Below, piece after piece: positions 49,121 through 63,345 of a stretch of DNA of 64,000 nucleotides. Source of the stretch: a virus; IMG/VR virus record IMGVR_UViG_3300046311_000263, positions 13,376-77,375 of that record. One strand, 5' to 3'. Under the pieces are notes generated by a model, which ran no database searches, was not told the DNA's origin, and saw only the letters and a program-made list of their open reading frames with translations. The position numbers and the translations under genes were made by a program. The first letter of the stretch is position 1; each line of letters begins with the position of its first letter.

Positions 49121-49600
49121 TTATTCATTGTTAATTATCCCTGAAGTAAGCTGACGAATAAGGTTATCATACTTGGATCCGCCATTGTTAACCTGCACAT
49201 TTAGCTGGTTTTTAATATTAGCTGAACGTGCTTTCTCTAGATCTATTTGTTTAGACATCTCATCCATGGTCATCTTGTGGCTTAGGGCCAGCAATTCAGC
49301 AATATCCTTAGCCGATCCAGTTTCTGATTCTTCCAGTTCCTGAAATTTCTTCTGAATAATAGCATCCATAGCTCTTCGCATTTTGAACCTATTATTAAAC
49401 CCCATATTGAAGAATACGTGATCTATGTAAGCTTTCACTTCTCTGCGATTTAGAGTTTCTGTGACAATTTCGGGAGGAAGGTCTAATTCTTCCGAGGTCG
49501 CTCGTATATCCTGGAGCTGAAGATAACTATTAGCAATTTCCAGGTACTCTGGGCTAATTGCTAGAACTTCGGCGGGGGTGTGTGTTGGTAGATTAGCCAT
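49121..49600 (-). CDS. terS: Terminase small subunit
   Basis: ISPE..IANSYL, SAKDIAELL; immediately upstream of terL. Confidence 0.88.
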   Translation of the reverse strand: MANLPTHTPAEVLAISPEYLEIANSYLQLQDIRATSEELDLPPEIVTETLNRREVKAYIDHVFFNMGFNNRFKMRRAMDAIIQKKFQELEESETGSAKDIAELLALSHKMTMDEMSKQIDLEKARSANIKNQLNVQVNNGGSKYDNLIRQLTSGIINNE

Positions 49601-49626
49601 GGTGTAAAATAAGTGCGATTGGTACA

Positions 49627-49655
49627 ATTATACCACCTAGGGTAATCACGTGCAA
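49627..49655 (-). promoter_or_regulatory. sigma70-type promoter for terS
   Basis: TTGCAC-17-TATAAT with TG. Confidence 0.8.
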
Positions 49656-49934: not shown

Positions 49935-50318
49935 ATGAACCGCGATACCGTTCTGCTCTCGATCATCAAGCAACTTATGCTGTCCCTCGACTCCTATGAG
50001 ATGAGGGCTCTTCTGGAAAAGGTTCTGGACAAGGAGCCGGAAGCTATTGCTCGCGGCCTGGGTGTTCATGTCCCTGTCCCTGTGACTGTAGAGGCGACCC
50101 CGGCATGGGCGTATGAGACGGTTGCCTTTCTGCGGAGCGCACACAAGGTGTCAGCTATCAAGGCTGTGCGTGCCGCTACCGGCATGGGCTTGAAGGAGGC
50201 AAAAGACACGATTGATTACTTCAGCGGGTACGGGGACGTTACTCACTACGGCCTATGTTACAAGGGGCAGGAGGCTGTTGCTGCCCTGCGTCGTGTTACC
50301 GGTACACTCTATATCTAA
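49935..50318 (+). CDS. Protein with ribosomal bL12 (L7/L12) C-terminal-domain-like motif
   Basis: KVSAIKAVRAATGMGLKEAKDTID; AGGA SD. Confidence 0.75.
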   Translation: MNRDTVLLSIIKQLMLSLDSYEMRALLEKVLDKEPEAIARGLGVHVPVPVTVEATPAWAYETVAFLRSAHKVSAIKAVRAATGMGLKEAKDTIDYFSGYGDVTHYGLCYKGQEAVAALRRVTGTLYI

Positions 50319-50473
50319 GTAGAGCAATAGGGGTTAGCCCCTATTGGCGCCTAAATTATACCACATAATTTAGGCCCGTGTCAACGTGCAGGACGTAACA
50401 ACCTGTAACTTGTAAGGTTGTTGCATTCCTAGAATTTTGCTGCTATACTACGTTCATTGTATAGGAGATAGAG

Positions 50474-50605
50474 ATGAGCAACCCGAACCAAGCCCGCTAC
50501 CTGACCCTGATCTGCGAAGCTGAGCGTTGGGGGAATCAAAGGGCATGTACGAAGTTGCCGCTATCTACTACGCTGCTGCTAACAAGCTGGAGATTAACTG
50601 AATGA
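50474..50605 (+). CDS. Small ORF, possibly frameshifted in a G5 run
   Basis: AGGAG SD; alternative frame after TGGGGG reads GMYEVAAIYYAAANKLEIN. Confidence 0.5.
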   Translation: MSNPNQARYLTLICEAERWGNQRACTKLPLSTTLLLTSWRLTE

Positions 50606-50757
50606 AACTCTTTCGCATCGCCTACCGCTTCATGATCAGCGACTTTCATGTCGAGGTGCAGTTCCGTGCCGCAAACAAGCAAATAGCCAAGGAGCTATTC
50701 ACTGAATTCATGCAACCGCAACATACCGAGATCGTGCTGGTCGAAACTGTCAAGTAA
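50602..50757 (+). CDS. Hypothetical protein (51 aa)
   Basis: MKLFRIAYRF..., GGAG SD, ends at repeat. Confidence 0.7.
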   Translation: MKLFRIAYRFMISDFHVEVQFRAANKQIAKELFTEFMQPQHTEIVLVETVK

Positions 50758-50922
50758 TTAATTGTAACAGCAAGTTGCTCGCTGTTACAATTTTGCGCCA
50801 AAATTATACCATATAATTTTGGGGCGGGTCAAAAAAGAACTGTAACAACCTGTAACTTGTAGGGGTATTACTTCACTAGAATTTTTTATGTTATACTACG
50901 TTCACTTTATAGGAGATATGAG

Positions 50923-51108
50923 ATGCCTAAAGCTCTCGAAAACCCCGAAATCCCTCTCTACGTGCGTCGCGTGTTGGCCGATGCTGCGCTCGAATACGCT
51001 AACGCTTTGGTTAAGAGCGAAAACGTCGAGCGTGCCTTCCGAGCCCTCAACCTTGCAGCAGATGATGCGATAACGTGTCTGCGTGCCTCCTATCTGGGGA
51101 TGAAGTAA
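50923..51108 (+). CDS. Hypothetical protein
   Basis: AGGAG SD, promoter upstream. Confidence 0.75.
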   Translation: MPKALENPEIPLYVRRVLADAALEYANALVKSENVERAFRALNLAADDAITCLRASYLGMK

Positions 51109-51332
51109 TGAACGGGCTGCGTCAAGTTTCTAGCCCGATGGTGCTGATTCCTGCATACGGTCGCGTATACACTACCCGCGAGGCTATGCTAAAAGACTGG
51201 GAGGCGGGTAAAGATTTCCGTGTGGTTGGGCATGGGTGCTACACCAGTATCCGTGATCTGGCCATGTTGCGGGAAAGTAGCAGCAGCGTTACCCTGCACG
51301 AGCCGCGCGCGCATATTCACATCAAGCTGTAA
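51108..51332 (+). CDS. Hypothetical protein
   Basis: TAATG coupling; PAYGRVY..DWEAGKDF motif. Confidence 0.75.
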   Translation: MNGLRQVSSPMVLIPAYGRVYTTREAMLKDWEAGKDFRVVGHGCYTSIRDLAMLRESSSSVTLHEPRAHIHIKL

Positions 51333-51565
51333 ACAATAACCCTACAGGTTGTAGGGTTATTTGCGCCGATTATACCATATATAATCGCCCCGCGTCACGC
51401 GGAGAAGTGTAACAATGTGTAAGCACGTTGTTACGATTTGCGCCAAAATTATACCACACCGCGTATGCACTGTCTATAGGAGTTTACCACTAGCAAATAG
51501 TTGTTGACTCTGTACCTAGCAGGCATCATAATAGATTCATCGGATCAAGAAACGGACTGCCAAAA

Positions 51566-51754
51566 ATGACCTCCTCCAAGTTCACTCCCGCCGTCGGTCT
51601 GCGTTGCTGGGTTCGCGTGTACTCTAGCGGCCGCACGGAAGTTCACTTTGTGGAAATCGTCGAACTGTTCGGCGTGGTAGGTGCTCGCGTGCAGATCATT
51701 GGGGATCGCATCATCCGCGTTTGTCAGTCGCAACTGTGCGCTAACCCTGTCTAA
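51566..51754 (+). CDS. Hypothetical protein
   Basis: Promoter TTGACT-17-CATAAT upstream; stop codon begins the cassette repeat. Confidence 0.7.
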   Translation: MTSSKFTPAVGLRCWVRVYSSGRTEVHFVEIVELFGVVGARVQIIGDRIIRVCQSQLCANPV

Positions 51755-51785
51755 GGGTTTGTCCCAATAGCCTTAGGAGTTACAA

Positions 51786-51926
51786 ATGGACACGAATCCC
51801 AACATGTACAAGCAAATGAATTCCCGCTTTGCCTACGCGGCTGTCAATTCGTCATTCGCTGACAACTTCTACTGGCAGGACACTGGCGGTTTTGCGTCCA
51901 TGTGGCTTATGGGCGGCGAGCTGTAA
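51786..51926 (+). CDS. Hypothetical protein (46 aa)
   Basis: AGGAG SD; MDTNPNMYKQ...GGEL. Confidence 0.7.
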   Translation: MDTNPNMYKQMNSRFAYAAVNSSFADNFYWQDTGGFASMWLMGGEL

Positions 51927-51991
51927 GGGTTTGTCCTAATAGCGGCAGGACTGCAAAGCCGCTAAACTGTGATCTCACTTTTGGAGTTTCT

Positions 51992-52123
51992 ATGAACCGC
52001 TTTCAACGTGGCTTTACCCTGTTTGAACTGATCTTTGTGATCGTTTGGCTGGCCTTTGCTGGCGCAGGCATCTACCTGCTGTCCCTGGTGGTGCGTGCGC
52101 TGCTGAAATACATTGGCGGCTAA
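51992..52123 (+). CDS. Mini prepilin-like protein (class III signal peptide only, 43 aa)
   Basis: MNRFQRG|FTLFELIFVIV: Gly-1, Phe+1, Glu+5, hydrophobic helix; GGAG SD. Confidence 0.8.
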   Translation: MNRFQRGFTLFELIFVIVWLAFAGAGIYLLSLVVRALLKYIGG

Positions 52124-52189
52124 GGGTTTGTACTAATAGCGGCAGCACACAAAAGCCGCTAAACTGTGATCTCACTTTTGGAGTTTTTG

Positions 52190-52360
52190 ATGAAGATTTT
52201 TGCTGGTTTCCTAAGCCTTGTCGGCCTGATTCTGTCCTCGATTGTTGGGTACCAGCTGGTGCAGGCTGTGATGCCGTCGCTGTTTCCACTGTGGCTGGCT
52301 AGCACACTGTTTATTTGGTGTGGGCTGGTGGCTAATACTGTTTCCAGGATGGAACAGTAA
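52190..52360 (+). CDS. Small two-helix membrane protein (56 aa)
   Basis: GGAG SD; hydrophobic. Confidence 0.7.
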   Translation: MKIFAGFLSLVGLILSSIVGYQLVQAVMPSLFPLWLASTLFIWCGLVANTVSRMEQ

Positions 52361-52432
52361 GGGTTTGTCCTAATAGCGGCAGGACTGCAAAGCCGCTAAA
52401 CTGTGATCTCACTTCAACGATTGGACTGTAAA

Positions 52433-52603
52433 ATGAACCTGACCCGTGCAAACGAAATCCGCGCTTCCCTCGGTCTGGCTCCGGTGGCTGGCCCTGATGC
52501 TGTGGCTGTCCAGGCGCAGAAGCGTCGTCAGGCTGCCAACAAGGCCGCCCGCGCGCAGGAGTCGCGCGATCTGAAGGCCAAGCGAGGCAGCCGCTCCAAG
52601 TGA
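52433..52603 (+). CDS. Small basic protein (56 aa)
   Basis: NEIRASLGLAP then Arg/Lys/Ala-rich tail. Confidence 0.7.
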   Translation: MNLTRANEIRASLGLAPVAGPDAVAVQAQKRRQAANKAARAQESRDLKAKRGSRSK

Positions 52604-52743
52604 GCAAAGCCCCTACAAGCTGTAGGGGCTTTTTGCGCCAAAATTATACCATACAATTTTGGGGCGGGTCAAAAAAGAACTGTAACAACCTGTAACTTGT
52701 AGGGGTATTATACACCAGCGAATTTCCGTGCTAGAATGCATGC

Positions 52744-52959
52744 ATGGTCAAAATCATCTCCTGGATAGGTACTGCAACTAGCATTGCTGGATCTTTCATC
52801 GTTGCTTCACAAATGTTTTTGCTTGGCTATTGCTTTTTTCTCGTTGGCAGCGTATCATGGCTGTATGTCGGGGCTGTCCGTCGGGAGGCCTCCCTAGTAG
52901 TTTTGAACGGCACATTCTTTGCCGCTAACCTTTTGGGGCTTTACAATGCTGCATTTTAG
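52744..52959 (+). CDS. Small three-TM membrane protein, probably leaderless
   Basis: Hydrophobic; ATG 6 nt after TAGAAT. Confidence 0.75.
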   Translation: MVKIISWIGTATSIAGSFIVASQMFLLGYCFFLVGSVSWLYVGAVRREASLVVLNGTFFAANLLGLYNAAF

Positions 52960-53019
52960 CTTTTTGTTTGTCGTCATTCTGGCATTCGTGCCGCTCAGTA
53001 TTGTGTACAGGAACCTGAA

Positions 53020-53169
53020 ATGAAATTCGGTATTCTTTTCCAGCCGGGAGCTTTCTGGATCGGTGTGCATTATTCACCATTTTGCAAACGGTATTGCATC
53101 AATTTGATTCCGTTTGTTACCCTCTGGGTCGCTGAAAAAGACGGCAAAATTCCGCACTCCACGCGATGA
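53020..53169 (+). CDS. Hypothetical protein (49 aa)
   Basis: FWIGVHYSPFCKRYCINLIPFVTLW; AGGA SD. Confidence 0.7.
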   Translation: MKFGILFQPGAFWIGVHYSPFCKRYCINLIPFVTLWVAEKDGKIPHSTR

Positions 53170-53249
53170 AAGAATATCAGATTCAGAAACTGATAAATTC
53201 CGCGCTGCTGGAAGTACTTGCGATTTTTGGTTATTTGCCTAGGAGTTAA

Positions 53250-53451
53250 TATGTGGTTTCCGTACGATGATTCTAAGGTAAACGATTTTTTCAGCAAGGA
53301 AAAAGATTTCTTGCTGAAATTGGATTATACTCGTGTTGTGATAGCGGGGTTATTCAATAATGGCGTTGATGGGTATCAATGGATTACCAGCGAGAATTGC
53401 CGAGTAATTCCCAGGGATAGAATCACGGATTACATGAGCATTCCGGACTAA
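53250..53451 (+). CDS. Hypothetical protein
   Basis: AGGAG SD before MWFPYDD; start approximate. Confidence 0.6.
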
Positions 53452-53456
53452 ACAGC

Positions 53457-53609
53457 ATGAAAGATAATCAAATGTGGCAAAAATGGTTTGCTTGGTATCC
53501 AGTAGCTTTTGGCCCTTATATCGTGTGGATGAAAACTGTCCAGCGAAAACAAGTGATTATGGAGGGACGTAAATATTGGTTCTATCGTAGAAACGTATTT
53601 CCGCTCTAA
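53457..53609 (+). CDS. Hypothetical protein (50 aa)
   Basis: WFAWYPV...IVWMK motif. Confidence 0.6.
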   Translation: MKDNQMWQKWFAWYPVAFGPYIVWMKTVQRKQVIMEGRKYWFYRRNVFPL

Positions 53610-53739
53610 TAAATAAGGGGAAACCCTTATTTTTGCGCCAATTTTACCACATAAAATTGGGCCAGGTCAAAAAAGAATTGTAACAACCTGTAACTTGTAG
53701 GGCTATTGCTTCGCTAGAATTTTCTGTTATACTCTACGC

Positions 53740-54120
53740 ATGATGACACCTGAACAGATGCTGGCGGACGCTCTACCCTGGGCAGACTATTGGTGGGCGA
53801 AGTTTAAGGGCATATATCGCTTGACTAAGCCTATGTCGACGTTTAAAATGAATAAACGGCTTAAGACAACGGCCGGGCGTAATTTCTGGATCGAGCGGGT
53901 TATTGATCTAAGCGTGGAATTGTATGGACAATATCCAGACGAATTTCGGTGCGAGATAATCCCGCATGAGTTGGCCCATCAAGTTACGTTTGACGTATAT
54001 GGAGAATGTCGGCAGATTCACGGCACAGAATGGAAATCTGTGATGCGTGCGGTAGGTCGAGAGCCTAGCACGTATCACAGTATGGAAAATCAGATTCACG
54101 CAGCGAGGAAAGCAAAATGA
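53740..54120 (+). CDS. SprT-like zinc metalloprotease, probably leaderless
   Basis: RLKTTAG, HELAH, HGTEWK. Confidence 0.88.
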   Translation: MMTPEQMLADALPWADYWWAKFKGIYRLTKPMSTFKMNKRLKTTAGRNFWIERVIDLSVELYGQYPDEFRCEIIPHELAHQVTFDVYGECRQIHGTEWKSVMRAVGREPSTYHSMENQIHAARKAK

Positions 54121-54239
54121 AAATTTTCGAGATTGTGTTTTGGAACGGGCAGAGCCAAATTGTTTTTGCTGAAACCCGTCGCGAGATTCGCAAAAAATTC
54201 ATTGGTATTCGTGAAATTAACCGGGTGGAAATTCATTGA
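54117..54239 (+). CDS. Hypothetical protein (40 aa)
   Basis: ATGA coupling, GAGG SD. Confidence 0.6.
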   Translation: MKIFEIVFWNGQSQIVFAETRREIRKKFIGIREINRVEIH

Positions 54240-54600
54240 TGGAAGCCGTTACTGTTCTTTTGTGGTGCGCTGCAGCGCTGCCCCTTTCTTGTGTTTTGTT
54301 TGGTGCTATTCAGGGGTTGTTCGACCCTGATATTCCGGATATTACCCATTCGGATATTGATCCGGAAATGTAATAGTAACCAATAAGGGTAAACCCTTAT
54401 TGGCGCCATTTTACTGTGGTAAAATGGGCCGTGTCAAGCGGTACTGTGTAACAGTTTGTAACAGCGTCTGCCGATAGGTAGGCGCCAAAATTATACCACA
54501 CGCCGAAACGGCTGTCTATAGGTGTTTTCACCTAGAAAATAGTTGGCACGAAACGGAAAAGTGCGATAGAATAGCATCACTGTAGAGCAAAGGACGCATA

Positions 54601-55077
54601 ATGGCAACGATTCGCAAGGTTTCGATTTACGACATGGATGGCACGATTGTGGATTCGACGCATCGCTATCGCACGCAAACCATTAACGGCGTCGAGAAAA
54701 TTGACCTTGAATATTGGCGTGCAAATGAATATCGCGCAATGGAAGATGGTTTGCTCCCGCTGGCGGATCAGTATATGGACGAATTGCGCGATCCGTCCGT
54801 CTATGTGATTATTGCCACTGCCCGCGTTATGGGCGCTGCCGACTGGCAGTTTGTGCGCAATATTCTCGGCGAACCCGATTACTTTATTTCCCGCGCTGCG
54901 GACGATACTCAGTCCGGCGGTTCGCTGAAAATCAAGGGGTTGCAAAAGTTTTTCAATCTGCGGCAGTTTCGCAAAGCTGATGCGGTTTTCTACGAAGATA
55001 ATACTTCGTATCTGAAGGCGGTTTGTGACCATTTTCAAATTCGGGGTGTTTACATTCCGTCGAAGCAGGGGCACTAA
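54601..55077 (+). CDS. dmp: HAD-family deoxynucleoside-5'-monophosphatase (T5 Dmp-like)
   Basis: YDMDGTIVDSTHR, DGLLPL, IIATARVM, YEDN match recalled T5 Dmp motifs. Confidence 0.85.
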   Translation: MATIRKVSIYDMDGTIVDSTHRYRTQTINGVEKIDLEYWRANEYRAMEDGLLPLADQYMDELRDPSVYVIIATARVMGAADWQFVRNILGEPDYFISRAADDTQSGGSLKIKGLQKFFNLRQFRKADAVFYEDNTSYLKAVCDHFQIRGVYIPSKQGH

Positions 55078-55185
55078 AATGGGGGTTCTGTATATTTTCC
55101 TAATTCTTTTGGGAATATTCGGAGCCTATTTCCTGCTGGAATGGGCATGGGATTTTCTGGTTTCTTGGCCTTTTGAGGAATGAAT

Positions 55186-55353
55186 ATGGGTATGCTCGTA
55201 AATAAACTGATTTTCCAGCTTGGCAAAATTGAGCTGGAAATTTATCGGCTGAATACTGCTAAATCCTCGGCCGATATTTACGAGCGTAGTGAAATCCAAT
55301 ATAGGCTAGATAGCCTATACCGCGAGAAACAAGTATTGCTAGCGAGTATTTGA
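55186..55353 (+). CDS. Hypothetical coiled-coil protein (55 aa)
   Basis: GAGG SD; open frame. Confidence 0.6.
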   Translation: MGMLVNKLIFQLGKIELEIYRLNTAKSSADIYERSEIQYRLDSLYREKQVLLASI

Positions 55354-55601
55354 GATACTAATAAGGGTTTACCCTTATTTTTGCGCCAAAATTATACCAT
55401 ACAATTTTGGGCCGTGTCAATAGGGTAAACCCCTATTGACACAAACAAATGTGTAACATTTGTAACAGCTGTAGGCGCCAAAAATTATACCACACCCGAA
55501 AAAAGCTGTCAATAGGGGTTTGTCCTAGTGACGCGGTCGGCGGGATAGGGTAGACTCTACTTTGATCGCGCATTCCTGCCCGACATACTCTGGAATATAT
55601 A

Positions 55602-56300
55602 ATGGCCCGCAAGCAGTTTTTCATTGGTATTGATACTGAAACCACCATTACTGATAAGGTTGTGGATTTTGGCGCGGTTATTCACGATCGGGCCGGTAAT
55701 ATCTACGGCCAATGTGGCATTCTGGTTCGTGATGTTTTCGGCGTTGACGATTTGTTTTATGATCGTAATTCCTCGGGTATCTGGGCGCGTAATAGTATTG
55801 CCCGCCGGATGAATAACTACAACCAAATGCTGGATTCTGGTATTCGTATGTTGGCATCTGTTAATGCTATCAATAACTGGCTTGCTAAGGCAATTGGCAA
55901 ATATGATCCGACTATGTATGCCTATAATCTGGCATTTGACGAATCTAAATGCCGGAATACCGGAATTGATTTGAATGGGTTTTCCAATCGTTTCTGCCTT
56001 TGGGGCGCTGCGGTTGGCAACATCTGCAATACCAAAAAGTATCGGCAGTTTGTCATGGATAATCATCTGTTCAATAATCGTACCGAAAAGGGTAACATGA
56101 CCTTTTCGACTACTGCGGAATCGGTTACTGCTTTTCTTCGTGGCGAGTATACGGATGAACCGCATACTAGCGTCGAAGATATTATCGGGTATGAGATGCC
56201 GACCCTGGTACATATTCTGAAAAAGAAGGATTGGAAGGAAAAGATTACCCCCTATAACTGGCGCGGTTTTCAGGTCAAAAACCATTTTCAGGCTAAGTAA
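55602..56300 (+). CDS. DEDDh 3'-5' exonuclease
   Basis: IDTET, AYNLAFD, HTSVED. Confidence 0.88.
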   Translation: MARKQFFIGIDTETTITDKVVDFGAVIHDRAGNIYGQCGILVRDVFGVDDLFYDRNSSGIWARNSIARRMNNYNQMLDSGIRMLASVNAINNWLAKAIGKYDPTMYAYNLAFDESKCRNTGIDLNGFSNRFCLWGAAVGNICNTKKYRQFVMDNHLFNNRTEKGNMTFSTTAESVTAFLRGEYTDEPHTSVEDIIGYEMPTLVHILKKKDWKEKITPYNWRGFQVKNHFQAK

Positions 56301-56302
56301 TC

Positions 56303-56638
56303 ATGCGAATTCACGAATTTGTCGAGTATCTGGATCTGGAGTTTCCCTATACTATTAAGCTGAAAAGCAAAGGTTGTCGAGATACTGCCAGATACTGGAA
56401 TATGGTAAATGATGAACATGGGCTGGAGTATCACCTGATTCATGTTTATCTCGGGAATCTAGGTAAACCCGGTGAGCGAGATTTGGAAACCCTTATTGCC
56501 CATGAATTGATTCACGCATGGCAGACTGAGCAGAATATGGATGAAATTCACGGCAAGGGGTTTATTAAAATGGCGGGCAAAATGTCCAAGAAATTCGATT
56601 TACCCCGTATCTATATACCCGAGGTAGATATTCCGTAA
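56303..56638 (+). CDS. Second SprT-like metalloprotease
   Basis: TLIAHELIH, HGKGF. Confidence 0.75.
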   Translation: MRIHEFVEYLDLEFPYTIKLKSKGCRDTARYWNMVNDEHGLEYHLIHVYLGNLGKPGERDLETLIAHELIHAWQTEQNMDEIHGKGFIKMAGKMSKKFDLPRIYIPEVDIP

Positions 56639-57006
56639 AAAACCCCGAAAGGGGTTTTTTATTATCTGCGGGATACTAATAAGGGTTTACCCTTATTTTG
56701 CGCCAAAATTATATCATATAATTTTGGGCCCGGGCCAATTGATTTTTTCAATTGGCCCGTGAGACGCCATAGGTAAGGCCTATGGCGCCAAAATTATACC
56801 ATACCCGCAAAAAGCTGTCAATAGGGGAAAGCACCTAAAATTTAGTCTTGCGCGGGCCACCGGATTCGGGCATAATAGATTTATCGGATCAGGAAACAGA
56901 CAGAACGGGGCGCAACAAGCAAAGTCCCTACAGTTGACAAGGGTTTCTGGTTCGGTTATACTGTGTTCTCTGTTGATTAACTTGTGTCTCGAAAGGACTA
57001 CTGAAA

Positions 57007-57384
57007 ATGGCTACCGCTAAGACTGTGAACTACACCCCCGAACAAACCGCGGAACTCAAGGCCGCTTACGTGGCATCCCCGAATGCCGATACCGTGGCGC
57101 TGTTTGCCGAAAAGTTTGGCAAGACCGTGAAATCGGTCGTGGCGAAGCTCTCGCGCGAAGGTGTGTACAAGGCGAAGGAATATGTGAGCAAGACCGGCGA
57201 GAAGCCGGTGAAAAAGGATACGCACGCTGACGCTATCGGTGCGGTTCTCAAGATGACCGAAGCGGAAATCGAATCGCTGACGAAGGCCAACAAAACGGCG
57301 CTTGTCAAGATTTTTCAAGCTCTGGCAAATTCCAAGCCGTTGGAAAACGGCGAGGATCGGGCAGGCGAAAAGGCCCCCGAGTAA
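57007..57384 (+). CDS. A2: A2-like DNA-binding protein, paralog 1
   Basis: NYTPEQT, KSVVAKLSREGVY, SLTKANKTAL resemble recalled T5 A2/D3; two tandem promoters upstream. Confidence 0.8.
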   Translation: MATAKTVNYTPEQTAELKAAYVASPNADTVALFAEKFGKTVKSVVAKLSREGVYKAKEYVSKTGEKPVKKDTHADAIGAVLKMTEAEIESLTKANKTALVKIFQALANSKPLENGEDRAGEKAPE

Positions 57385-57855
57385 GCAATAGGGGGAAACC
57401 CCTATTGTAAAATCCTAGGACAAACCCGGCGCTCCGGGGGTCTTAAAATAAATCCTGTCTAGGTCAGGTGAGAATAGCCCTGTCAAGTACAGGGCTATTT
57501 TTTGGCCTGGCGCTGTTACAAACTTTTACATTTTTCCGCTTGACTTTTCGTGCGCAGCGTGTTATAATACAAGCGCAGGCGCGCCAAAATTTTGTTACAA
57601 ATTTGCGCCAAAATTATAACATATAGTTTTGGCCAGTGTCAACAACTTTCTTCTAGGGGTTTTCACCTATGTTTTTATTTTGGCGTCGTGAGATACTATC
57701 TTTGTTGGTTGAGGGGCTTTGTAGGGTGTGGGGGATAGGCTCCCACTCTGCCTAGCAGCGGATGACTCTAGCCGGGTACACTCTACAAAGCCCCTACAGT
57801 TGATAAGGTTTCTAGTTTCGGTTATACTGTGTTTCTACTTTGAAAGGTTCTGAAA

Positions 57856-58197
57856 ATGTCTGCTTCCAATTCCAAGCTGTCCGCTGTGCAAAAGAGTGAA
57901 CGTAGGCGGCTGCTTGCGGCGCTTCCCAAGGGTTCCGTTCTGGCAATGTCTGAATGTGGTGTTACCGTCCTGACGATTCCCGATGGTGCAGTTACTCGCA
58001 TGTATACGTCGGTTGCATCCCAGACGGAAAAAAAGCTGCGTCGCAAGGTTGGTGAGTACAACGTGCTGATGCGTGAGTATCATGGTGGTGGCGACGTGGT
58101 TTTGCAGCGTCATATGGATGCTGAGGGGGTGGTTGTCGATCTATTTGGTGGAGTGGCCGGAACCGAAGACGGTATGCCCTTCATCCGTTACCTGTAA
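57856..58197 (+). CDS. Hypothetical protein
   Basis: Promoter and SD similar to those of 57007. Confidence 0.75.
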   Translation: MSASNSKLSAVQKSERRRLLAALPKGSVLAMSECGVTVLTIPDGAVTRMYTSVASQTEKKLRRKVGEYNVLMREYHGGGDVVLQRHMDAEGVVVDLFGGVAGTEDGMPFIRYL

Positions 58198-58438
58198 TAG
58201 GCGAGTTAATTGAATAATATTCGCGCTCCGCCCTGACGGGTATATTATAAAAAATATTATAGATAAAACCCCGCGCGCTGCGGGGTTTTTGTTTGTCAAG
58301 CATTGTTACATTTGTTACACTTTGTTACAAGTTTGCGCCAATTTTACCACATAAAATTGGCGCACGTCAATAGGGGAAAGCACCTATATTTTTTGTTTTT
58401 TTCTGTGGCACAATGGATTTATCTGCTTAGGAGGTAGT

Positions 58439-58591
58439 GTGGCTAACAAGGAATACAAGCGCTATGCGTCTTTCGGGCCGGGCGGCTTCAATTGCGCTGC
58501 TCCGGGCAGGGTCAGAAAAGCGACCCTGAGGCGTGCAAAGCGCATCGAACGTGCTAAAATGCGTCGTCAGCTTGAAAAGGAATCGAAATGA
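58439..58591 (+). CDS. Small basic protein (50 aa)
   Basis: AGGAGG SD, GTG start, GPGG motif. Confidence 0.65.
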   Translation: MANKEYKRYASFGPGGFNCAAPGRVRKATLRRAKRIERAKMRRQLEKESK

Positions 58592-58719
58592 CAGATATTA
58601 TCTGGGTCTGGAGTCGGCGATACCCCGACTATGCAGAACGTATGCGTGCCATGTCGCACCCCAATAACGTGCAGAACGCCTTTGAAGCGGCGTCGATGAT
58701 GTTTCTGGAGCCTATTTAA
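58588..58719 (+). CDS. Hypothetical protein (43 aa)
   Basis: ATGA coupling, AAGGA SD. Confidence 0.6.
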   Translation: MTDIIWVWSRRYPDYAERMRAMSHPNNVQNAFEAASMMFLEPI

Positions 58720-58950
58720 ATGACGCTTTCCCCTTTTGAATACCCGGTCGATCGGGCCATCGCAAGTTTCAACGATACTCAGCTGAATCCCCGGCTGCCT
58801 ATCGAGGAAATTCAAGGCTTGCATGATTCTGGCCTTTCGACCGACGAAGACGGCGAAGCCATCGTCGATACTATCGACCCCGAAATTCCGTTTGGATGGC
58901 GGGTTATTGAGGCTGACGACCCTTTGATTCTCAACCCCCAGGAGATTTAA
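58720..58950 (+). CDS. Small acidic protein
   Basis: 76 aa, Asp/Glu-rich. Confidence 0.7.
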   Translation: MTLSPFEYPVDRAIASFNDTQLNPRLPIEEIQGLHDSGLSTDEDGEAIVDTIDPEIPFGWRVIEADDPLILNPQEI

Positions 58951-58952
58951 AC

Positions 58953-59207
58953 ATGGGAGTATGTGTCCAGTTTTACAAAAAGGGTTCTAGTAACCCTGAA
59001 AAGCTGGCAGACATTGATAATGCTATTTGTAAGCATTTCGGCGTCGAACCGGATCCCAAACTGTGGTTTGAATACTGGTTTGATACTGTCGGATTCTTTC
59101 TGGCGTGCGGAAAGGATTATGACTGGATTGTGAGAGAATATCCCGAGCGTCAGGCACTTTGTGTGTTTCTCGCACAAAACTACGAAGTTAGCCACTGGAG
59201 AGAATAA
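58953..59207 (+). CDS. Hypothetical protein
   Basis: AGGAG SD; IDNAICKHFGVEPDPK. Confidence 0.75.
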   Translation: MGVCVQFYKKGSSNPEKLADIDNAICKHFGVEPDPKLWFEYWFDTVGFFLACGKDYDWIVREYPERQALCVFLAQNYEVSHWRE

Positions 59208-59337
59208 TAAAAACCCGCCGTAGCGGGTTTTTTTATTATCTACGACATACTAATAAGGGTAAACCCTTATTGGCGCCATTTTAACATATAAAATGGGCAC
59301 CTGTCAAGGATTGTTACAAATTTTTACATACTCCCTA

Positions 59338-59356
59338 AATGCGAATGCGTCTCATT
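59338..59356. promoter_or_regulatory. Fur-box-like site
   Basis: AATGCGAATGCGTCTCATT, 16/19 to AATGAGAATGATTCTCATT. Confidence 0.6.
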
Positions 59357-59434
59357 ACGGCTAATTTGCGCCAAAATTATACCACAGAAAAACTGCCCGC
59401 GTCAAGCGCTGTTACATCTGTTACACTTAAGTAA

Positions 59435-59505
59435 GTGAGCACTTACGGGGGCGGTCTAAGTAAGTGAGCGCTCACTGGGCGCTTTACAAGTTGGTGAGCA
59501 CTCAC
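59435..59505. promoter_or_regulatory. Three SlmA-binding-sequence-like palindromes
   Basis: GTGAGCACTTAC 59435, GTGAGCGCTCAC 59464, GTGAGCACTCAC 59494 vs consensus GTGAGTACTCAC. Confidence 0.7.
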
Positions 59506-59562
59506 TATCGTACCATTGGCCGCGGAGGCGGCGAATTGCCGTGGCGGCAAAAAGTCCTTATG

Positions 59563-59575
59563 AATCAATGACTTA
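59563..59575 (+). promoter_or_regulatory. IHF-binding consensus
   Basis: AATCAATGACTTA = WATCAANNNNTTR with upstream A-tract. Confidence 0.65.
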
Positions 59576-59981
59576 CGTATTTTCGCAGCTCCTTGCGAGC
59601 TGCGCCAGTGGTAAAACTAGCTAAAATTTCTGCACGTGCGCTGCGCCAAAATTATACAGTGCCAAAGCTATCTGAGTCAAGTAAATATTTTCACACTTGA
59701 CGTGGCCATCCAAAAGTGACAAAATGAATATTCTTCGGCGGACAAGCGAACCAAATGGGTTAACCTGTCGAAGCAACCTCGTTTATGCGTTAAATTAGCG
59801 ACTCAAATTTTTGGTGACTATACTCATACATCAGAAAATATTGTCTTGCACAACGAGGCGGTTTACGTTACAATAGATTCATCGGTTGGGAAGAGAGACA
59901 AGCTAACCGAGACGAACAAAAATTCTATCTTGTCTGTGTTTCTAATAGTGCGATATAATAATTCTTTAGAAGGGAATTCAA

Positions 59982-60320
59982 ATGACTGAAAAGACCAAGG
60001 CCGTGAACTACACCGCCGAACAAGTTGCTGAGATGGTTGAAGCTTACAAGGCTGTGTCGACCAAGGCTACCGTGAAGGCCCTGGCTGAAAAGCTGGGCAA
60101 GACCGAGCGTAGCGTTATCGCTAAGCTGGCAAAGGAAGGGGTTTACCAGAGCGAGGCGAAGGAAGCCGGCAAGCGTGCCATGCTGAAGAGCGAGATGGTG
60201 GCTAAGCTGGCGGAGCTGACCGGCGCGAGCGAGGAACAGCTGGACAGCCTGGAGAAGGCTACCGGTACTGCACTGATGGTGCTGGTGAAGGCTCTGACTG
60301 CGGCGCAAGCCGCTGAGTGA
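59982..60320 (+). CDS. A2: A2-like DNA-binding protein, paralog 2
   Basis: VNYTAEQ, GKTERSVIAKLAKEGVY, SLEKATGTAL; clearly paralogous to 57007. Confidence 0.8.
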   Translation: MTEKTKAVNYTAEQVAEMVEAYKAVSTKATVKALAEKLGKTERSVIAKLAKEGVYQSEAKEAGKRAMLKSEMVAKLAELTGASEEQLDSLEKATGTALMVLVKALTAAQAAE

Positions 60321-60347
60321 GCAACCCGAGGGTCAGAAAATTTTGAC

Positions 60348-60467
60348 TTGACCCTCGAGGTATTTTAATCTATAATAGATATATCGATTGGGGAATAGCA
60401 GCAACAGACACCAGCGTCGAATGACTAAAAATTCTGTCTTGACTCGCTGCTAATTCTTCTGTATAAT
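60348..60467 (+). promoter_or_regulatory. Two tandem consensus sigma70-type promoters for the ncRNA operon
   Basis: TTGACC-17-TATAAT (60348-60376) and TTGACT-17-TATAAT (60439-60467). Confidence 0.88.
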
Positions 60468-60473
60468 GAATGT

Positions 60474-60906
60474 ATGCCAGGCGGAATGCTGGCGGCGTAA
60501 GTACCAGAAACACTGGCAGCCATAAATGAAAGTGTGGGTGGACAGCGGTGGTGCTGGCAGCATAAATCATGCTGTTACAGGTTGATCCAAGCGTCCTTAA
60601 TTGCCGAGAATATTAGAGAGACTTTGCAGTATTTACACTACCAAAGTAAACCTAGAGCCGAGCGTCAGCCCTTCAGAACACCGATTGAAATCCCTGCCGC
60701 ACTTTACCAGTGCAGGCATATGACCTGCAGACAACATTAAGGCGGGGATTTCAATGGGTGGTTTGAGACCCCGCCGTAAGGCCGGGATAAAAGCTTAATG
60801 GAGTCTGAAATACTCGAGTCTCCGCCCAGTAAATTAGTCTATTTTGTTGACCCCCGGCGAGTCAAGTGTTTTCGCAAGTCTATGTTAGACTCGCCGGGGA
60901 AGGCTG
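60474..60906 (+). ncRNA. Structured non-coding RNA(s), family unassigned
   Basis: 15-bp stem 60684-60698/60741-60755, 12-bp stem 60852-60863/60888-60899, several small hairpins. Confidence 0.6.
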
Positions 60907-60915
60907 TGAAGTATT

Positions 60916-60990
60916 GCCGTATTCGTCTAGTGGTTAGGACACCGGGGTTTCATCCCGTCAACGAGAGTTCGATTCTCTCATATGGTACCA
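60916..60990 (+). tRNA. tRNA-Glu(UUC), copy 1
   Basis: Cloverleaf, TTC anticodon, GAGAG-TTCGATT-CTCTC T arm, encoded CCA. Confidence 0.92.
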
Positions 60991-61105
60991 AACGCAAACT
61001 CTGATGATGACTCCGCGTTAAGTGAGTCGAAACTCTAGCTATCTGTAGCAAATCGCTGAAGCAACTTCAGTCTGCCTCACTTGCTATAACCTAGGGTCAG
61101 GAAGT
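60991..61105 (+). ncRNA. Type I hammerhead ribozyme, copy 1 (cut after C61098)
   Basis: CUGAUGA, stem II GACUC/GAGUC, GAAA, stem III ACUCUAG/CUAGGGU, GUC site, AACGC/GCGUU pseudoknot. Confidence 0.85.
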
Positions 61106-61108
61106 ATT

Positions 61109-61183
61109 GCCGTATTCGTCTAGTGGTTAGGACACCGGGGTTTCATCCCGTCAACGAGAGTTCGATTCTCTCATATGGTACCA
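61109..61183 (+). tRNA. tRNA-Glu(UUC), copy 2
   Basis: Identical to copy 1. Confidence 0.92.
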
Positions 61184-61298
61184 AACGCAAACTCTGATGA
61201 TGACTCCGCGTTAAGTGAGTCGAAACTCTAGCTATCTGTAGCAAATCGCTGAAGCAACTTCAGTCTGCCTCACTTGCTATAACCTAGGGTCAGGAATT
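61184..61298 (+). ncRNA. Type I hammerhead ribozyme, copy 2 (cut after C61291)
   Basis: Identical core to copy 1. Confidence 0.85.
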
Positions 61299-61300
61299 TA

Positions 61301-61932
61301 TACCACTGGCCATGGCGGCCAAAGCTAAATAGTAATATCTAAGAGATCGCAACTTAGGTTCCTAAATCCGGAAACCAACGGTGCACGTATTGCATGTCCG
61401 TGGTAATGCCAAAAGGCTACTGATATTCGGATAACTAACCACTTACAGAGCTGGTGCTCGTTGGTGGAGGTTACATGTGTCACCAGCCGTCTATCTGAGG
61501 TCAACCTATGCTCAGATTGCACGATATATAATGGCTCCTAGTGAACTGTCGTTCATAGCTGGGGGAAGCAGAACGACGTTAGCCTACCCCTTTATGGACG
61601 AGAGCGGTAGAGGTGAAGTTAAGATGCCAAAGTAGATGAAATTTCTACAACCTAGATAGGCCCTGATAAGCAATCACCACTAAGGTGAGAGTGCTCATAG
61701 TCAAAACCTTTAAATAGTAGCTTGGTGATCTACTAGTCTAGACAGCTGCGAGATAGTGACTTATCGTCTCCTTAGACCAAGAATGGTACACTTGGTGCAG
61801 ATAAAGAAATCTCGGATGCGCGACCGAGTGTGAACATGTTACGAAATATGTAGGAAGCATATCCTCCCCTAATAAGGTATAGAAAAGCAGCCAGTAGTGC
61901 CAACCAGCCAGACTGAAATTAAATCGGTGGTA
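61301..61932 (+). ncRNA. Large ornate ncRNA (~630 nt; ROOL/GOLLD-like in size and context)
   Basis: Closing stem TACCACTG/CGGTGGTA, more than 12 internal hairpins, no + strand ORF of 60 aa or more, terminator follows. Confidence 0.75.
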
Positions 61933-61941
61933 CGATTTATC

Positions 61942-61975
61942 CAGCCCCTACGTCGAAAGACCTAGGGGCTGTTTT
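61942..61975 (+). terminator. Intrinsic terminator of the ncRNA operon
   Basis: CAGCCCCTA-CGTC-GAAA-GAC-CTAGGGGCTG-TTTT. Confidence 0.85.
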
Positions 61976-62179
61976 CGTTCCTGCGCCAATATTATACAGT
62001 GCCAAAACTATCTGTGTCAAGTGAGAATTTACTCAGCCGACCCTACGTCAGAGCAGTCTCCCGCCTCCGGCGGGTACTTGCTCAAATTTAGGCATCTGCT
62101 CAAATTTGAGCAAATACCCAAACTTAGGCCAATTATCGCTTCTAACCGATATTTTGAAAATATCGCCTCTAGCCGATAT

Positions 62180-62230
62180 AAAATGCAAAAAGCCCACACA
62201 GTATTACGCTGTGTGGGCTTTTTGCATTTT
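62180..62230 (-). terminator. Long hairpin terminator after D3-like gene
   Basis: AAAATGCAAAAAGCCCACACAG...CTGTGTGGGCTTTTTGCATTTT. Confidence 0.85.
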
Positions 62231-62561
62231 AGACACCTGCTTCGCAGGGAGATAATTTCTCAATAATTAGCTTTAATATGCTTTTATTGACCTTACCTAG
62301 ACTTTCTGCGAGATCTATGTCGATTTCTAGCAATTCTGCGAGTTTTTGGACGTAAAACTCTTTTTTAACTGGAGGTTCGCCGGTTTTTCCGACGTAGGAC
62401 TTCTTTTTGTAGAGGCCCATAGAGCTGAGCTTGGCTATGATGCTTCGCTCAGTGGTGCCAAATTGCGACGCAAGCTCGCAGGTTGGCACGCCTGAGGTGA
62501 ACTGAGCTACTAGGGACTTCGTTATCTCGTGTGTGTATTCTAACTTACCAAGGGGCGTCAT
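62229..62561 (-). CDS. D3: D3-like DNA-binding protein (A2/D3 family)
   Basis: GTTERSIIAKLS, YVGKTGEPPVKK shared with 57007; directly follows D2-like gene. Confidence 0.75.
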   Translation of the reverse strand: MTPLGKLEYTHEITKSLVAQFTSGVPTCELASQFGTTERSIIAKLSSMGLYKKKSYVGKTGEPPVKKEFYVQKLAELLEIDIDLAESLGKVNKSILKLIIEKLSPCEAGV

Positions 62562-63345
62562 ACGAAAAAGTTTTTTCCTGTTGTTTAGGCTCCGCTACAA
62601 ACACGGAAGAACTCACCAGCGGAGCGGGTGTAGCGTCCCAATTCCTAGGGTCTAGGATCATGTACTGGTGACGGTTTTCTGGGTGAGCTACCCAGATCTG
62701 CGTGAGCATAGCTTTAAGGTACAGAGGCATACCCCCTAGGGCTGTCTGTTCAATGCGAGACAAACTGTGGTAGGTTTTTGGATTACGTGGTGATTTGCCC
62801 GGCACCGAAAGTCCTAGGTCCCGAATTTCGACCAATTTTTGGGGCTGGAGCTCCCGAGCTACGTCTGCAGGCAGGTCATAACTAACTGCATCCCATAGTA
62901 GTTGATCTACTAGGTGCTTTACCTCGTTGCGCACCCAAACCCCGTACGGAATGTTGTTGAACTTTTTTTGTGCTGCCATATAAAGAGGCACTAAAGCACA
63001 ATAAGGCAGGCTTTCAGGTAGGGTCTGCTTACCCATGACCTTGCTACGGCTGACTTTAGTGATAAACCTCCATATACCAAGCTCTCTAGGCTTACCTAAT
63101 ACGTTTAGGTCTAGAAATTGTCGTGCTGAGATGTTTTGGGTGGATGGAAGCCTATATGAAGCTAAGTGTGCTAGTAGCTGAGGACCTAACCATTCCCAGG
63201 TTTCTTGGTTTCTCAGCTTGTGCAGCTTAACAAAATCTTCTACTATAGTAGAAGACGCATCTCCGCCACTTACATCTGCTAAAAGGTTTTGGTATTCGAA
63301 CTCAATATTTTCGAAAGGAATGGTTTTAATATCTTTTTTGACCAT
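62545..63345 (-). CDS. D2: D2-like protein
   Basis: LVPLYMAAQKKFNNIPYGVW and MLTQIWVAHP resemble recalled T5 D2. Confidence 0.7.
   Translation of the reverse strand: MVKKDIKTIPFENIEFEYQNLLADVSGGDASSTIVEDFVKLHKLRNQETWEWLGPQLLAHLASYRLPSTQNISARQFLDLNVLGKPRELGIWRFITKVSRSKVMGKQTLPESLPYCALVPLYMAAQKKFNNIPYGVWVRNEVKHLVDQLLWDAVSYDLPADVARELQPQKLVEIRDLGLSVPGKSPRNPKTYHSLSRIEQTALGGMPLYLKAMLTQIWVAHPENRHQYMILDPRNWDATPAPLVSSSVFVAEPKQQEKTFSYDAPW

Follow-up and report, generated by a model that had tools for sequence, protein, structure and literature searches.

The injection stop signal (iss) of phage T5 is annotated at positions 9140-10149 of NC_005859 (misc_feature) and corresponds to Repeat Region 3 of the left terminal repeat, where it was described as better conserved than the adjacent ORFs and as containing paired DnaA boxes in an IRD'-spacer-IRC' arrangement, which recurs in inverted orientation several kb further left (Davison, bioRxiv 10.1101/866236). 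The signal occupies the untranslated inner end of this long direct repeat, at the limit of the first-step DNA, and has so far been mapped by position only. Also relevant to the present locus are the PeSL (promoter-early stem-loop) cassettes of T4-like phages, a parallel for modules made of a promoter and a stem-loop (PMC4122927, PMC2839356), and the SlmA-binding sites of Escherichia coli, for which mutagenesis yielded a rule that fixes positions 1, 2, 4 and 5 as G, T, A and G and admits any purine at position 3 and any pyrimidine at position 6 (PMC3020112).

The window (the whole stretch of viral DNA that was analysed, 64,000 nucleotides) originated from a freshwater metagenome. Sequence comparison indicated that its phage is T5-like and a distant relative of T5, with a TerL that was 45% identical to Demerecviridae TerL; the known hosts of this family are Gammaproteobacteria. 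A GC-rich island of ~12 kb (49.8-62.0 kb) carried three A2 homologues (phrog_1725) and one dmp homologue and enclosed the block under study (59208-59981, ~770 bp). Gene A1 is needed by T5 for second-step transfer. Neither the window's record nor any of four near-complete relatives contained A1 (phrog_1745), in a search that as a control found two members in T5 and two in phage phi3.

On balance, we favour the interpretation that the block is a composite promoter and protein-docking region controlling the A2-like gene immediately to its right, located within an A1-less island of modules. The ~12-kb island, which is of pre-early type, probably represents the long terminal repeat in the genome of a T5-related freshwater phage without A1.

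Layout and conservation of the block

A sequence-only reading had described the block as a gene-free region of ~770 bp, packed with host-factor-like sites and lying about 9.5 kb after a switch in composition, and had proposed it as the equivalent of the T5 iss. Its description of the region was borne out by our analysis. The longest ORF was 51 aa, none of the ORFs was conserved, and a tblastx comparison to the syntenic relative G002 showed nothing matching across 58974-59976. GC content stepped up at 49.9-50.0 kb in the window, thereby placing the block start ~9.2-9.5 kb past the composition switch. Every listed element was recovered at or near the coordinates first given for it. The block was the longest intergenic region of the island, yet of the same kind as the other island intergenic regions. 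The elements identified, including the gene that follows, were:

59209-59232, no strand: bidirectional intrinsic terminator, scored on both strands, with its hairpin present in the fold of the leftward RNA
59252-59271, no strand: 20-bp palindrome AATAAGGGTAAACCCTTATT (AAGGG...CCCTT), repeat family D9, one of six island copies
59278-59307, minus strand: leftward sigma-70 promoter 1 (TTGACA, 18-bp spacer, TAAAAT, extended -10)
59338-59356, no strand: 'Fur-like box', by sequence match a decayed 7-1-7 palindrome of the Demerecviridae type (family consensus AAATGAGAATCATTCTCATTT)
59376-59405, minus strand: leftward promoter 2, one instance of the cassette GCGCCAAAATTATACCA...GTCAA found island-wide; it did not vary among four relatives (alignment A1)
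59410-59425, plus strand: two TGTTACA sites 9 bp apart (starts 59410 and 59419) beside the -35 of promoter 2, kept in all four aligned relatives
59429-59505, no strand: three phased palindromes (59435-59446, 59464-59475 and 59494-59505; 29 + 30 bp spacing)
59510-59552, no strand: GC-rich segment with short palindromes, seen in the sequence and not alignable in relatives
59563-59575, plus strand: exact IHF consensus match WATCAANNNNTTR, at chance level and not conserved in relatives
59584-59610, no strand: GC hairpin CGCAGCTC/GAGCTGCG (59584-59604) running into the motif GCGCCAGTG, which was invariant in four relatives
59651-59680, minus strand: leftward promoter 3, present in G002 and G006
59847-59885, plus strand: rightward promoter P1 with conserved start region ATAGATTCATCGG, invariant across relatives
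59930-59981, plus strand: rightward promoter P2 (TTGTCT, 18-bp spacer, TATAAT) together with the A2-like gene's ribosome-binding site, conserved in the alignment
59982-60320, plus strand: A2-like gene, 112 aa (phrog_1725, E 1.2e-6)

The product of the A2-like gene was 29% identical to A2 of phi3 and was the best T5 A2 homologue in the window; A2 of T5 matched the same family at 4e-52. The A2-like proteins are encoded at 57007-57384, 59982-60320 and 62229-62561. Promoter P1 occurred in four copies, located ahead of gene 51566, two A2-like genes and a tRNA zone. On the minus strand, each of the three promoters matched 11 of 12 consensus positions, and promoter-like sites were enriched both around the block (12 at 58.5-60.5 kb versus 2.5 expected) and over the whole island (55 versus 23.8 expected). 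The terminator would end the upstream plus-strand gene (58953-59207) and would also stop leftward transcripts from the block; terminators were found at the equivalent position in G002, G006 and G003. A transcript from promoter 1 would be ~62 nt long, terminating at 59209-59232, with AATAAGGGTAAACCCTTATT as its predicted 5' hairpin, while one from promoter 3 would cross the palindrome array and reach ~435 nt if it extended to the terminator.

Homologous blocks were present in G002, G006 and G003, and alignment A1 retained the promoter cassette, the TGTTACA pair, one palindrome, GCGCCAGTG, P1, P2 and the ribosome-binding site. The block centre (59409-59650) gave no blastn match to G002 or G006, in comparison to flanking genes that were 66-76% identical. 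In the relative L017, GCGCCAGTG likewise came after an array and hairpin. The IHF site of the sequence-only reading does exist as an exact match, but the number of matches to WATCAANNNNTTR in the window was at chance (5 versus 4.1 expected) and the site was not kept in relatives. LexA boxes were absent from the block, and a search of GenBank phages for DNA nearly identical to the block, like a protein search with a 232-aa island protein, returned no match. An Rfam scan placed two tRNAs alone above threshold; weak matches in or beside the block to rimP, rsmX and istR fell below threshold and are a reflection of the terminator hairpins.

Repeated modules and palindrome arrays

Many of the elements belonged to families distributed throughout the island. 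The three reverse promoters of the sequence-only reading were present as described, but they, the AAGGG...CCCTT palindrome and the TGTTACA sites were all copies of modules repeated through 49.8-62.0 kb. TGTTACA occurred 27 times in the window versus 10 expected, with 21 of these scattered over the island and no concentration in the block, where a third site was located at 59312; pairs at equal spacing were found elsewhere in the island too. The leftward cassette was confined to 50.3-62.0 kb in one orientation throughout, and its ~18 promoters retained the -35, the extended -10 and a spacer length of 17-18 bp around a variable spacer sequence. A reading of the cassette on the plus strand, as a T4 middle-promoter-like box with a -10, was rejected because many copies lacked the plus-strand -10, in contrast to the -35 and -10 of the minus strand, which every copy retained.

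The ~18 cassettes were located between single small genes across 49.8-62.0 kb, and contigs of sister strains (runs X2 and X4-X6) were joined at cassettes: 53661>57645, 55411>59397, 59251>54382 and 53661>59401. The joint 59251>54382 falls at the palindrome 59252-59271, and 55411>59397 and 53661>59401 fall at promoter 2.

Two elements of the block, the palindrome triplet and the 7-1-7 copy, are real signals. All three palindromes of the triplet fit the published SlmA site rule GTRAGYRCTYAC, in line with the SlmA-like triplet first proposed here, and counts exceeded expectation, as GTNAGYRCTNAC occurred three times in the window, each time in the block, versus 0.39 expected. The consensus of this palindrome family was cGAAGTGAGTRCTCACTTCg. 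Complete relatives had SlmA-rule sites nowhere outside the island. A phage-encoded binder of TetR type was sought for these sites and dropped, as none of these phages was found to encode a TetR-family protein.

The box at 59338-59356 had been read as Fur-like. A good Fur box, scored either as GATAATGATAATCATTATC or in the 7-1-7 form TGATAATnATTATCA, was not found there: agreement with GATAATGATAATCATTATC was 7/19 at the register first proposed and 12/19 at the best register, and 126 window positions scored as high. The signal instead stood as a decayed 7-1-7 palindrome, with two mismatches to AATGAGAATCATT at 59344-59356 on the minus strand, and was the sole copy in the window. Arrays of the 7-1-7 palindrome TGAGAATnATTCTCA occupied the equivalent position in relatives (L017, L032 and L048), and the homologous blocks of G002 and G006 each held one good copy. 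In L017, three copies with a 30-bp period were situated at the position where the window has its three SlmA-rule palindromes. As Fur boxes, the motif copies of relatives and of T5 scored far better, and one T5 copy had a single mismatch to TGATAATnATTATCA.

In the window, G002, G005, L048, L021, L045 and G001 (twice), A2-like genes were preceded at a distance of 300-650 bp by palindrome sites or arrays; in phi3, a single 7-1-7 site precedes A2 by 36 bp and another precedes the adjacent gene by 30 bp. From these sequence features we infer that the block is transcribed, bound by proteins and regulatory in the following manner. The bidirectional terminator would close the upstream gene, and the three nested leftward sigma-70 promoters, with palindromes after each, would produce non-coding transcripts that stop at that terminator. 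Two tandem rightward promoters and a leader would serve the gene for the A2-like DNA-binding protein. Dimeric DNA-binding proteins, for which the candidates are A2-like paralogues encoded by the phage itself or SlmA- or Fur-type proteins of the host, may dock on the TGTTACA pairs and on the array position, comprising the three phased SlmA-rule palindromes and the one decayed T5-family 7-1-7 palindrome. Such docking could set the firing of the back-to-back promoters and thereby the timing of A2-like expression. The repeated promoter-palindrome modules may additionally act as recombination points that shuffle small genes between strains.

Several observations speak against this control-region interpretation. 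P1 and P2 are 350-450 bp away from the array, a long distance for a simple operator, and the leftward promoters have no gene to transcribe. Furthermore, G004 lacked both palindrome types, G002 held variant sites only, and the array of L017 was followed by 1.8 kb without a clear gene rather than by an A2-like gene. Should A2, Fur and SlmA fail to bind, the block would be an ordinary promoter region, if a crowded one, within an early island that shuffles genes. The control region may additionally take part in DNA entry.

Alternative explanations for the block

The block may instead be the equivalent of the T5 iss, as the sequence-only reading had it, where DNA entry would pause as the palindrome array reaches the cell envelope. 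We regard this as unlikely, and attach the same low probability to the accompanying proposal that host DNA-binding proteins already present, or the structure of the DNA, would maintain the pause until A2-like protein has been made. The kinship of the phage agrees with such a role, as TerL is T5-like and homologues of dmp and A2 reside in the island, and the block begins right after a terminator closing rightward genes, as in T5. The 7-1-7 motif is moreover the core repeat of the T5 iss, where AATGAGAATCATT-type palindromes (DRC/DRE, palE and related repeats) form an array: 9 of 10 matches in the T5 left repeat lie at 9552-9709. It also fills the corresponding region of phage My1, and short-word BLAST gave 26 nt at 96% identity (E 3e-5). 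The L017 array, three such palindromes with a 30-bp period at the position of the window's SlmA-rule triplet, also argues for this role.

Sequencing depth bears on the same question. In run X2, depth from ~50.0 kb to 60.9-61.3 kb was 1.6-2x that of the flanks, expressed as per-contig values because the runs are stored as contigs: 37-48 over the contigs spanning 50.84-60.94 kb in comparison to 27.3 for the left contig (47.2-50.84 kb, which lies partly in the island) and 23.2 for a contig of 10.7 kb that begins at 61267. Such a profile is suggestive of a terminal repeat of ~11 kb (~50.0-61.1 kb) that starts at the composition switch and includes the block, in keeping with an iss. The block would then lie 1-2 kb from the repeat end, and the repeat would run at least 0.95 kb past it, so that a second gene-poor zone at 60321-62228 becomes the better positional match for an iss. 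Runs X4, X5 and X6 had no depth step or doubling; this counts nominally against an iss, but we gave these runs no weight either way.

Against the iss equivalent, the window held only a single, decayed copy of the iss motif. The DRD repeats GTGCAAATCCGACA, of which the T5 iss has nine, were absent from the window and appeared in relatives solely as stray matches with two mismatches, and none of the four DnaA-box matches (TTWTNCACA) in the window fell in the block. A long inverted-repeat partner was sought and not found, and A1 was missing from the clade despite the positive control search. The promoters and TGTTACA sites were island-wide, the IHF match was at chance and the block centre was poorly conserved. 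Arrays also adjoined other A2-like genes, one of them near the left edge of the island in G001, and G004 was devoid of these palindromes. Overall, the original proposal was partly supported.

A narrower version is that the array position alone serves as the functional equivalent of the T5 and My1 injection-stop core, as a phased docking array for a dimeric protein that marks or holds the first-entering DNA end. We assign it the same low likelihood. The site type would be interchangeable between lineages, being Fur-like 7-1-7 in T5, My1 and L017 and SlmA-rule here, with a host protein or A2 as the partner. If this were true, the T5 stop signal and the role of A2 would gain a defined sequence to test. 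A clade that lacks A1 and possesses dmp, several A2 copies and phased arrays narrows the candidate working element to a short array, and the arrays point to direct binding tests with A2, Fur and SlmA.

A quite unlikely explanation is that the left 470 bp encodes small non-coding RNAs of ~62, 160 and 435 nt with one common terminator; these RNAs would be the functional products, for instance as antisense RNAs or decoys. The promoters come close to consensus, and promoter 1, the 5' hairpin and the terminator together resemble a classic small-RNA unit with a predicted fold z-score of -4.6; the longer predicted leftward RNA (59645>59385) had a z-score of -3.7. The order of gene, terminator, hairpin and leftward promoter also recurred in G002, G006 and G003 with a different hairpin sequence. 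However, the low fold energies are a direct consequence of the palindromes, no Rfam family was detected at threshold, sequence between the promoters was poorly conserved and most island copies of the leftward promoter lacked a downstream terminator.

Very unlikely is a decoy function, in which the three SlmA-rule palindromes titrate host SlmA, the 7-1-7 sites of relatives titrate Fur, and the incoming DNA alters division or iron regulation. Such a function is consistent with the agreement of all three sites with an experimentally derived rule, with the exact GTGAGTACTCAC carried by some relatives, with the restriction of SlmA-rule sites to the island in complete relatives, with the lack of a TetR-family protein in the phages and with the gammaproteobacterial hosts known for Demerecviridae. 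On the other side, the host here may or may not have SlmA; other palindrome types occupied the same position and G004 had none; the palindromes fit equally well as RNA hairpins with 4-nt loops or as sites for an A2-like protein; and three sites per genome would titrate little protein.

A replication origin, to which the three phased iteron-like repeats, the IHF-consensus match, the hairpin and the GC- and AT-rich parts might point, was rejected as extremely improbable, as the block had no DnaA boxes, the IHF match was at chance, the repeats were palindromes common to promoter cassettes, no replication gene was nearby and the T5 origins lie near the middle of the genome (Davison, bioRxiv 10.1101/866236).

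Comparison with known systems

The three palindromes obey the same rule as the SlmA-binding sites (SBS) of E. coli (consensus GTGAGTACTCAC; Tonthat et al. 2011, PMC3020112). Unlike the SBS, these putative sites belong to a phage, where they form a phased triplet flanked by conserved GAA/TTC.

The cassettes share with the PeSL of T4-like phages their nature as short composites of promoter and stem-loop between small genes of a plastic early region, and both are recombination points joining otherwise unrelated genes, seen here as cassette-to-cassette joints in sister strains. In contrast to PeSL, the cassette promoter that is conserved reads from the minus strand, away from the plus-strand genes supported by homology, and separate rightward promoters accompany it; the stem-loops are of several sequence types, two of which resemble host transcription-factor sites.

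In comparison to the T5 iss, the block lacks the paired DnaA boxes, the IRD'-spacer-IRC' arrangement, its second inverted copy and the DRD repeats, and its array follows the SlmA rule instead of being Fur-like. The block is also full of consensus promoters, whereas the T5 left repeat showed no excess (43 versus 36 expected); its centre is poorly conserved, an A2-like gene follows it and the clade is without A1. In general plan, both regions are untranslated, ~0.8-1 kb long and palindrome-rich, follow a terminator that closes rightward pre-early genes, and lie late in a region of ~10-11 kb with dmp and A2. They have the motif family AATGAGAATCATT/TGAGAATnATTCTCA in common, present as arrays in T5, My1 and L017 and as one decayed copy in the block, and in both a GC hairpin and then GCGC are found just past the array.

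The virus record and its GC-rich island

The source record is linear (77,375 bp; CheckV completeness 73%); the window covers its bases 13376-77375, and base 64000 of the window is the end of the contig. Between 13 and 49.6 kb the structural genes lie on the minus strand; among them are genes for TerS (49121-49627), TerL, the portal and major tail proteins, and an apparent head protease-capsid fusion. TerL was 45% identical to Demerecviridae TerL (Pectobacterium My1, Vibrio phi3, Serratia Slocum), which makes the phage a distant relative of T5; genomes in the clade of T5 relatives G000 and G002-G005 are about 102-105 kb. Head maturation protease families and major head protein families alike match the 656-aa protein encoded at 43903-45873, whose gene therefore appears to be a fused protease-capsid gene; in phi3 the two proteins are encoded separately.

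GC content changes from approximately 0.38-0.41 to 0.45-0.53 at 49.9-50.0 kb and is elevated until about 63 kb. The early-gene island that begins at this switch carries small, plus-strand genes and, on the minus strand, one of three A2 paralogues, as listed below.

Genes of the island
54601-55077, HAD-type phosphatase, homologue of T5 Dmp (tblastn, 32% identity)
57007-57384, A2 paralogue 1 (phrog_1725, E 1.6e-3)
59982-60320, A2 paralogue 2 (phrog_1725, E 1.2e-6)
62229-62561, minus strand, A2 paralogue 3 (phrog_1725, E 3.5e-4)
Within the island, two SprT-like genes
Within the island, a conserved 232-aa protein (phrog_20187)

For comparison, the DNA-binding protein A2 of T5 itself matches phrog_1725 at 4e-52, and the 59982 protein showed 29% identity to phi3 A2. 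A1 (phrog_1745) had no match in the window's record or in four relatives that are 96-100% complete, while the same search returned two matches in T5 and two in phi3. Members of the clade (G000, G002-G005) carry three or four A2-like paralogues without detectable A1, and one of these paralogues adjoins a conserved 266-aa protein gene on the opposite strand (62545-63345 in the window).

Promoter cassettes and palindromes of the gene-free block

No intergenic stretch of the island is longer than the one at 59208-59981. The sequence-only reading had proposed it as a gene-free landing pad for host DNA-binding proteins that halts DNA injection, and our analysis confirmed both its gene-free status (longest ORF ≤51 aa; translated comparison with the syntenic relative G002 gave no match) and the presence of every element then listed. 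Rfam returned nothing above threshold in the block, and neither DnaA nor LexA boxes were found there.

Much of this content is not particular to the block. On the minus strand between 49811 and 62030, approximately 18 near-consensus sigma-70 promoters point against the plus-strand genes, and every one combines TTGAC and an extended -10 with a spacer of 17-18 bp. The promoter core GCGCCAAAATTATACCA (plus-strand reading) occurs 12 times, all at 50.3-62.0 kb and in a single orientation, with only one match (three mismatches, same strand) in the rest of the 77-kb record. Hexamers and spacer length are constant while spacer sequence varies, which is the mark of real promoters. Directly after each promoter stands a palindrome that belongs to a small set of types; the AATAAGGG...CCCTTATT palindrome of the block has six copies in the island, and TGTTACA was counted 27 times in the window (10 expected), with 21 of these sites within the island. 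The three reverse promoters, this palindrome and the TGTTACA sites of the block are all members of these island-wide families, and the bulk of the block is thus material found across the island. GCGC is present at the predicted transcript start in all leftward cassettes, and antisense RNA, short hairpin RNA or supercoiling effects are possible roles for these promoters.

Sister-strain Logan contigs from four freshwater runs contained cassette-to-cassette joints (53661>57645, 55411>59397, 59251>54382 and 59428>54513), and the modules are therefore recombination points. Joints at 53661, 55411, 57645, 59251, 59397-59428 and others link promoter cassettes or palindromes, so that natural populations show deletion or reordering of the gene modules that lie between cassettes. 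The PeSL cassettes of T4-like phages are likewise recombination points (PMC4122927, PMC2839356); unlike in PeSLs, the conserved promoter of the island cassettes is oriented against the genes.

The right third of the block is a predicted promoter region for the A2-like gene at 59982:

59847-59874, rightward, promoter P1 with start region ATAGATTCATCGG
59930-59959, rightward, promoter P2

Both promoters and the ribosome-binding site are kept in the homologous blocks of relatives G002, G006 and G003, and the ATAGATTCATCGG start region also occurs upstream of gene 51566, the first A2-like gene and the tRNA zone.

Partial backing for the landing-pad proposal comes from the SlmA-rule triplet and from the motif link to T5, both described below. 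Three matches to GTNAGYRCTNAC were found in the 64-kb window where 0.39 were expected, and these are the block's three phased palindromes, which are a real signal. Mutagenesis of sites for the host protein SlmA defined a rule of G, T, A and G at positions 1, 2, 4 and 5 with a purine at 3 and a pyrimidine at 6 (PMC3020112), and all three palindromes satisfy it. The consensus in relatives is cGAAGTGAGTRCTCACTTCg (36 instances); strict matches in complete relatives are confined to the island (eight in G001, two each in G003 and G005, none in G002 or G004) in comparison to 0-1 for the reversed control pattern. No TetR-family protein is encoded by these phages. The supposed Fur-like box is a decayed copy of the family motif AAATGAGAATCATTCTCATTT, a 7-1-7 palindrome (TGAGAATnATTCTCA). 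Read as host-factor signals, however, the IHF and Fur-consensus sites were rejected for their chance-level counts and do not back the proposal: IHF consensus occurred five times in the window against 4.1 expected, with no conservation of the block's match found in relatives, and the Fur score was 7/19 at the register first proposed and 12/19 at best, equalled by 126 window positions.

One good 7-1-7 copy is present in the homologous block of G002 and one in that of G006, and the motif is present in one or more copies in four further relatives (L032/G005, L048, L021, L045). The related record L017 has three copies with an exact 30-bp period, flanked by a leftward promoter cassette and by a GC hairpin that is followed by GCGCCAGTG, in the position equivalent to the window's three SlmA-rule palindromes. 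In window orientation, an A2-like gene is preceded by palindrome sites or arrays at a distance of 300-650 bp in the window, G002, G005, L048, L021 and L045; G001 has two arrays upstream of A2-like genes, one near the island's left edge, the L017 array is followed by 1.8 kb without a clear gene, and neither motif was found in G004. Arrays are therefore recurrent, not universal, and are linked more closely to A2-like genes than to one island end. Overall, we lean towards the block being a composite region, made of mobile promoter-palindrome modules, for protein docking and for transcription control of the A2-like gene.

Contig depth and a possible terminal repeat

Per-contig word depth in freshwater metagenome run X2 was 1.6-2 times that of both flanks over about 50000-61300, as seen from contigs only, in which read starts are not visible.

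Word depth of X2 contigs
47.2-50.84 kb, 27.3
50.84-60.94 kb, five contigs, 47.6, 54.5 (230 bp), 46.1, 37.1 and 37.1
59254-60937, 42.7
61267 onward (10.7 kb), 23.2

This may reflect a terminal repeat of about 11 kb, from the GC switch to within or just after the tandem tRNA-Glu repeat, and the excess in the 47.2-50.84 kb contig would be explained by a high-depth start at about 50.0-50.2 kb, at the composition switch. Alternatively, the depth also fits a second phage in the sample with a shared island. No depth step was seen in runs X4-X6. If a terminal repeat exists, the block would lie 1-2 kb inside its right end, and a second gene-poor zone (60321-62228, 1.9 kb) would be closer to that end. 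This zone contains:

60348-60467, promoter pair, 83-84% identity in G002 and G006
60908-61293, tRNA-Glu gene in two identical copies, an exact tandem of 193 bp
61575-61631 and 61921-61979, short conserved patches
61983-62020, last leftward cassette
62179-62231, perfect 23-bp inverted repeat at the convergence of plus- and minus-strand genes

Comparison with T5, My1 and phi3

An injection-stop function for the block, as first proposed, is unlikely on present evidence, and the comparison with the T5 injection stop signal (iss) bears on it from both sides. Of ten 7-1-7 matches in the first 11.5 kb of T5, nine fall at 9552-9709, within the annotated iss (9140-10149) of a left repeat ending at 10219; by sequence comparison, the block's family motif is the core repeat of the iss. 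Short-word BLAST of the iss matched L032 (26 nt, 96% identity, E 3e-5) as well as L017 and G006, and the same array is found in Pectobacterium phage My1, at 12187-12340 in a repeat of 12,854 bp. T5 also has a perfect Fur-type 7-1-7 site (TGATAATCATTATCA) close to its left end, at 233-247 within the dmp coding region. In phi3, single 7-1-7 palindromes at 111929 (TGAGAGTGATTCTCA) and 112309 (TGAGAATGTTTCTCA) stand 36 bp before A2 and 30 bp before the neighbouring gene, respectively, a placement that resembles that of operators.

The block lacks the DnaA-box inverted repeats, the DRD repeats and the high conservation of the iss, and its clade lacks A1. The T5 repeat, unlike the island, has no excess of consensus promoters (43 vs 36 expected), and it has no SlmA-rule sites in comparison to three in the block. 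At 9729-9749 in T5, a GC hairpin followed by GCGC marks the major nick directly after the palindrome array, and the matching place in the block (59584-59610) and in relatives has a GC hairpin followed by conserved GCGCCAGTG. Block and iss share the 7-1-7 motif family, of which the block has one decayed copy, together with an untranslated, post-terminator position late in a dmp- and A2-bearing region of about 10-11 kb and a phased palindrome array that precedes a GC hairpin and GCGC.
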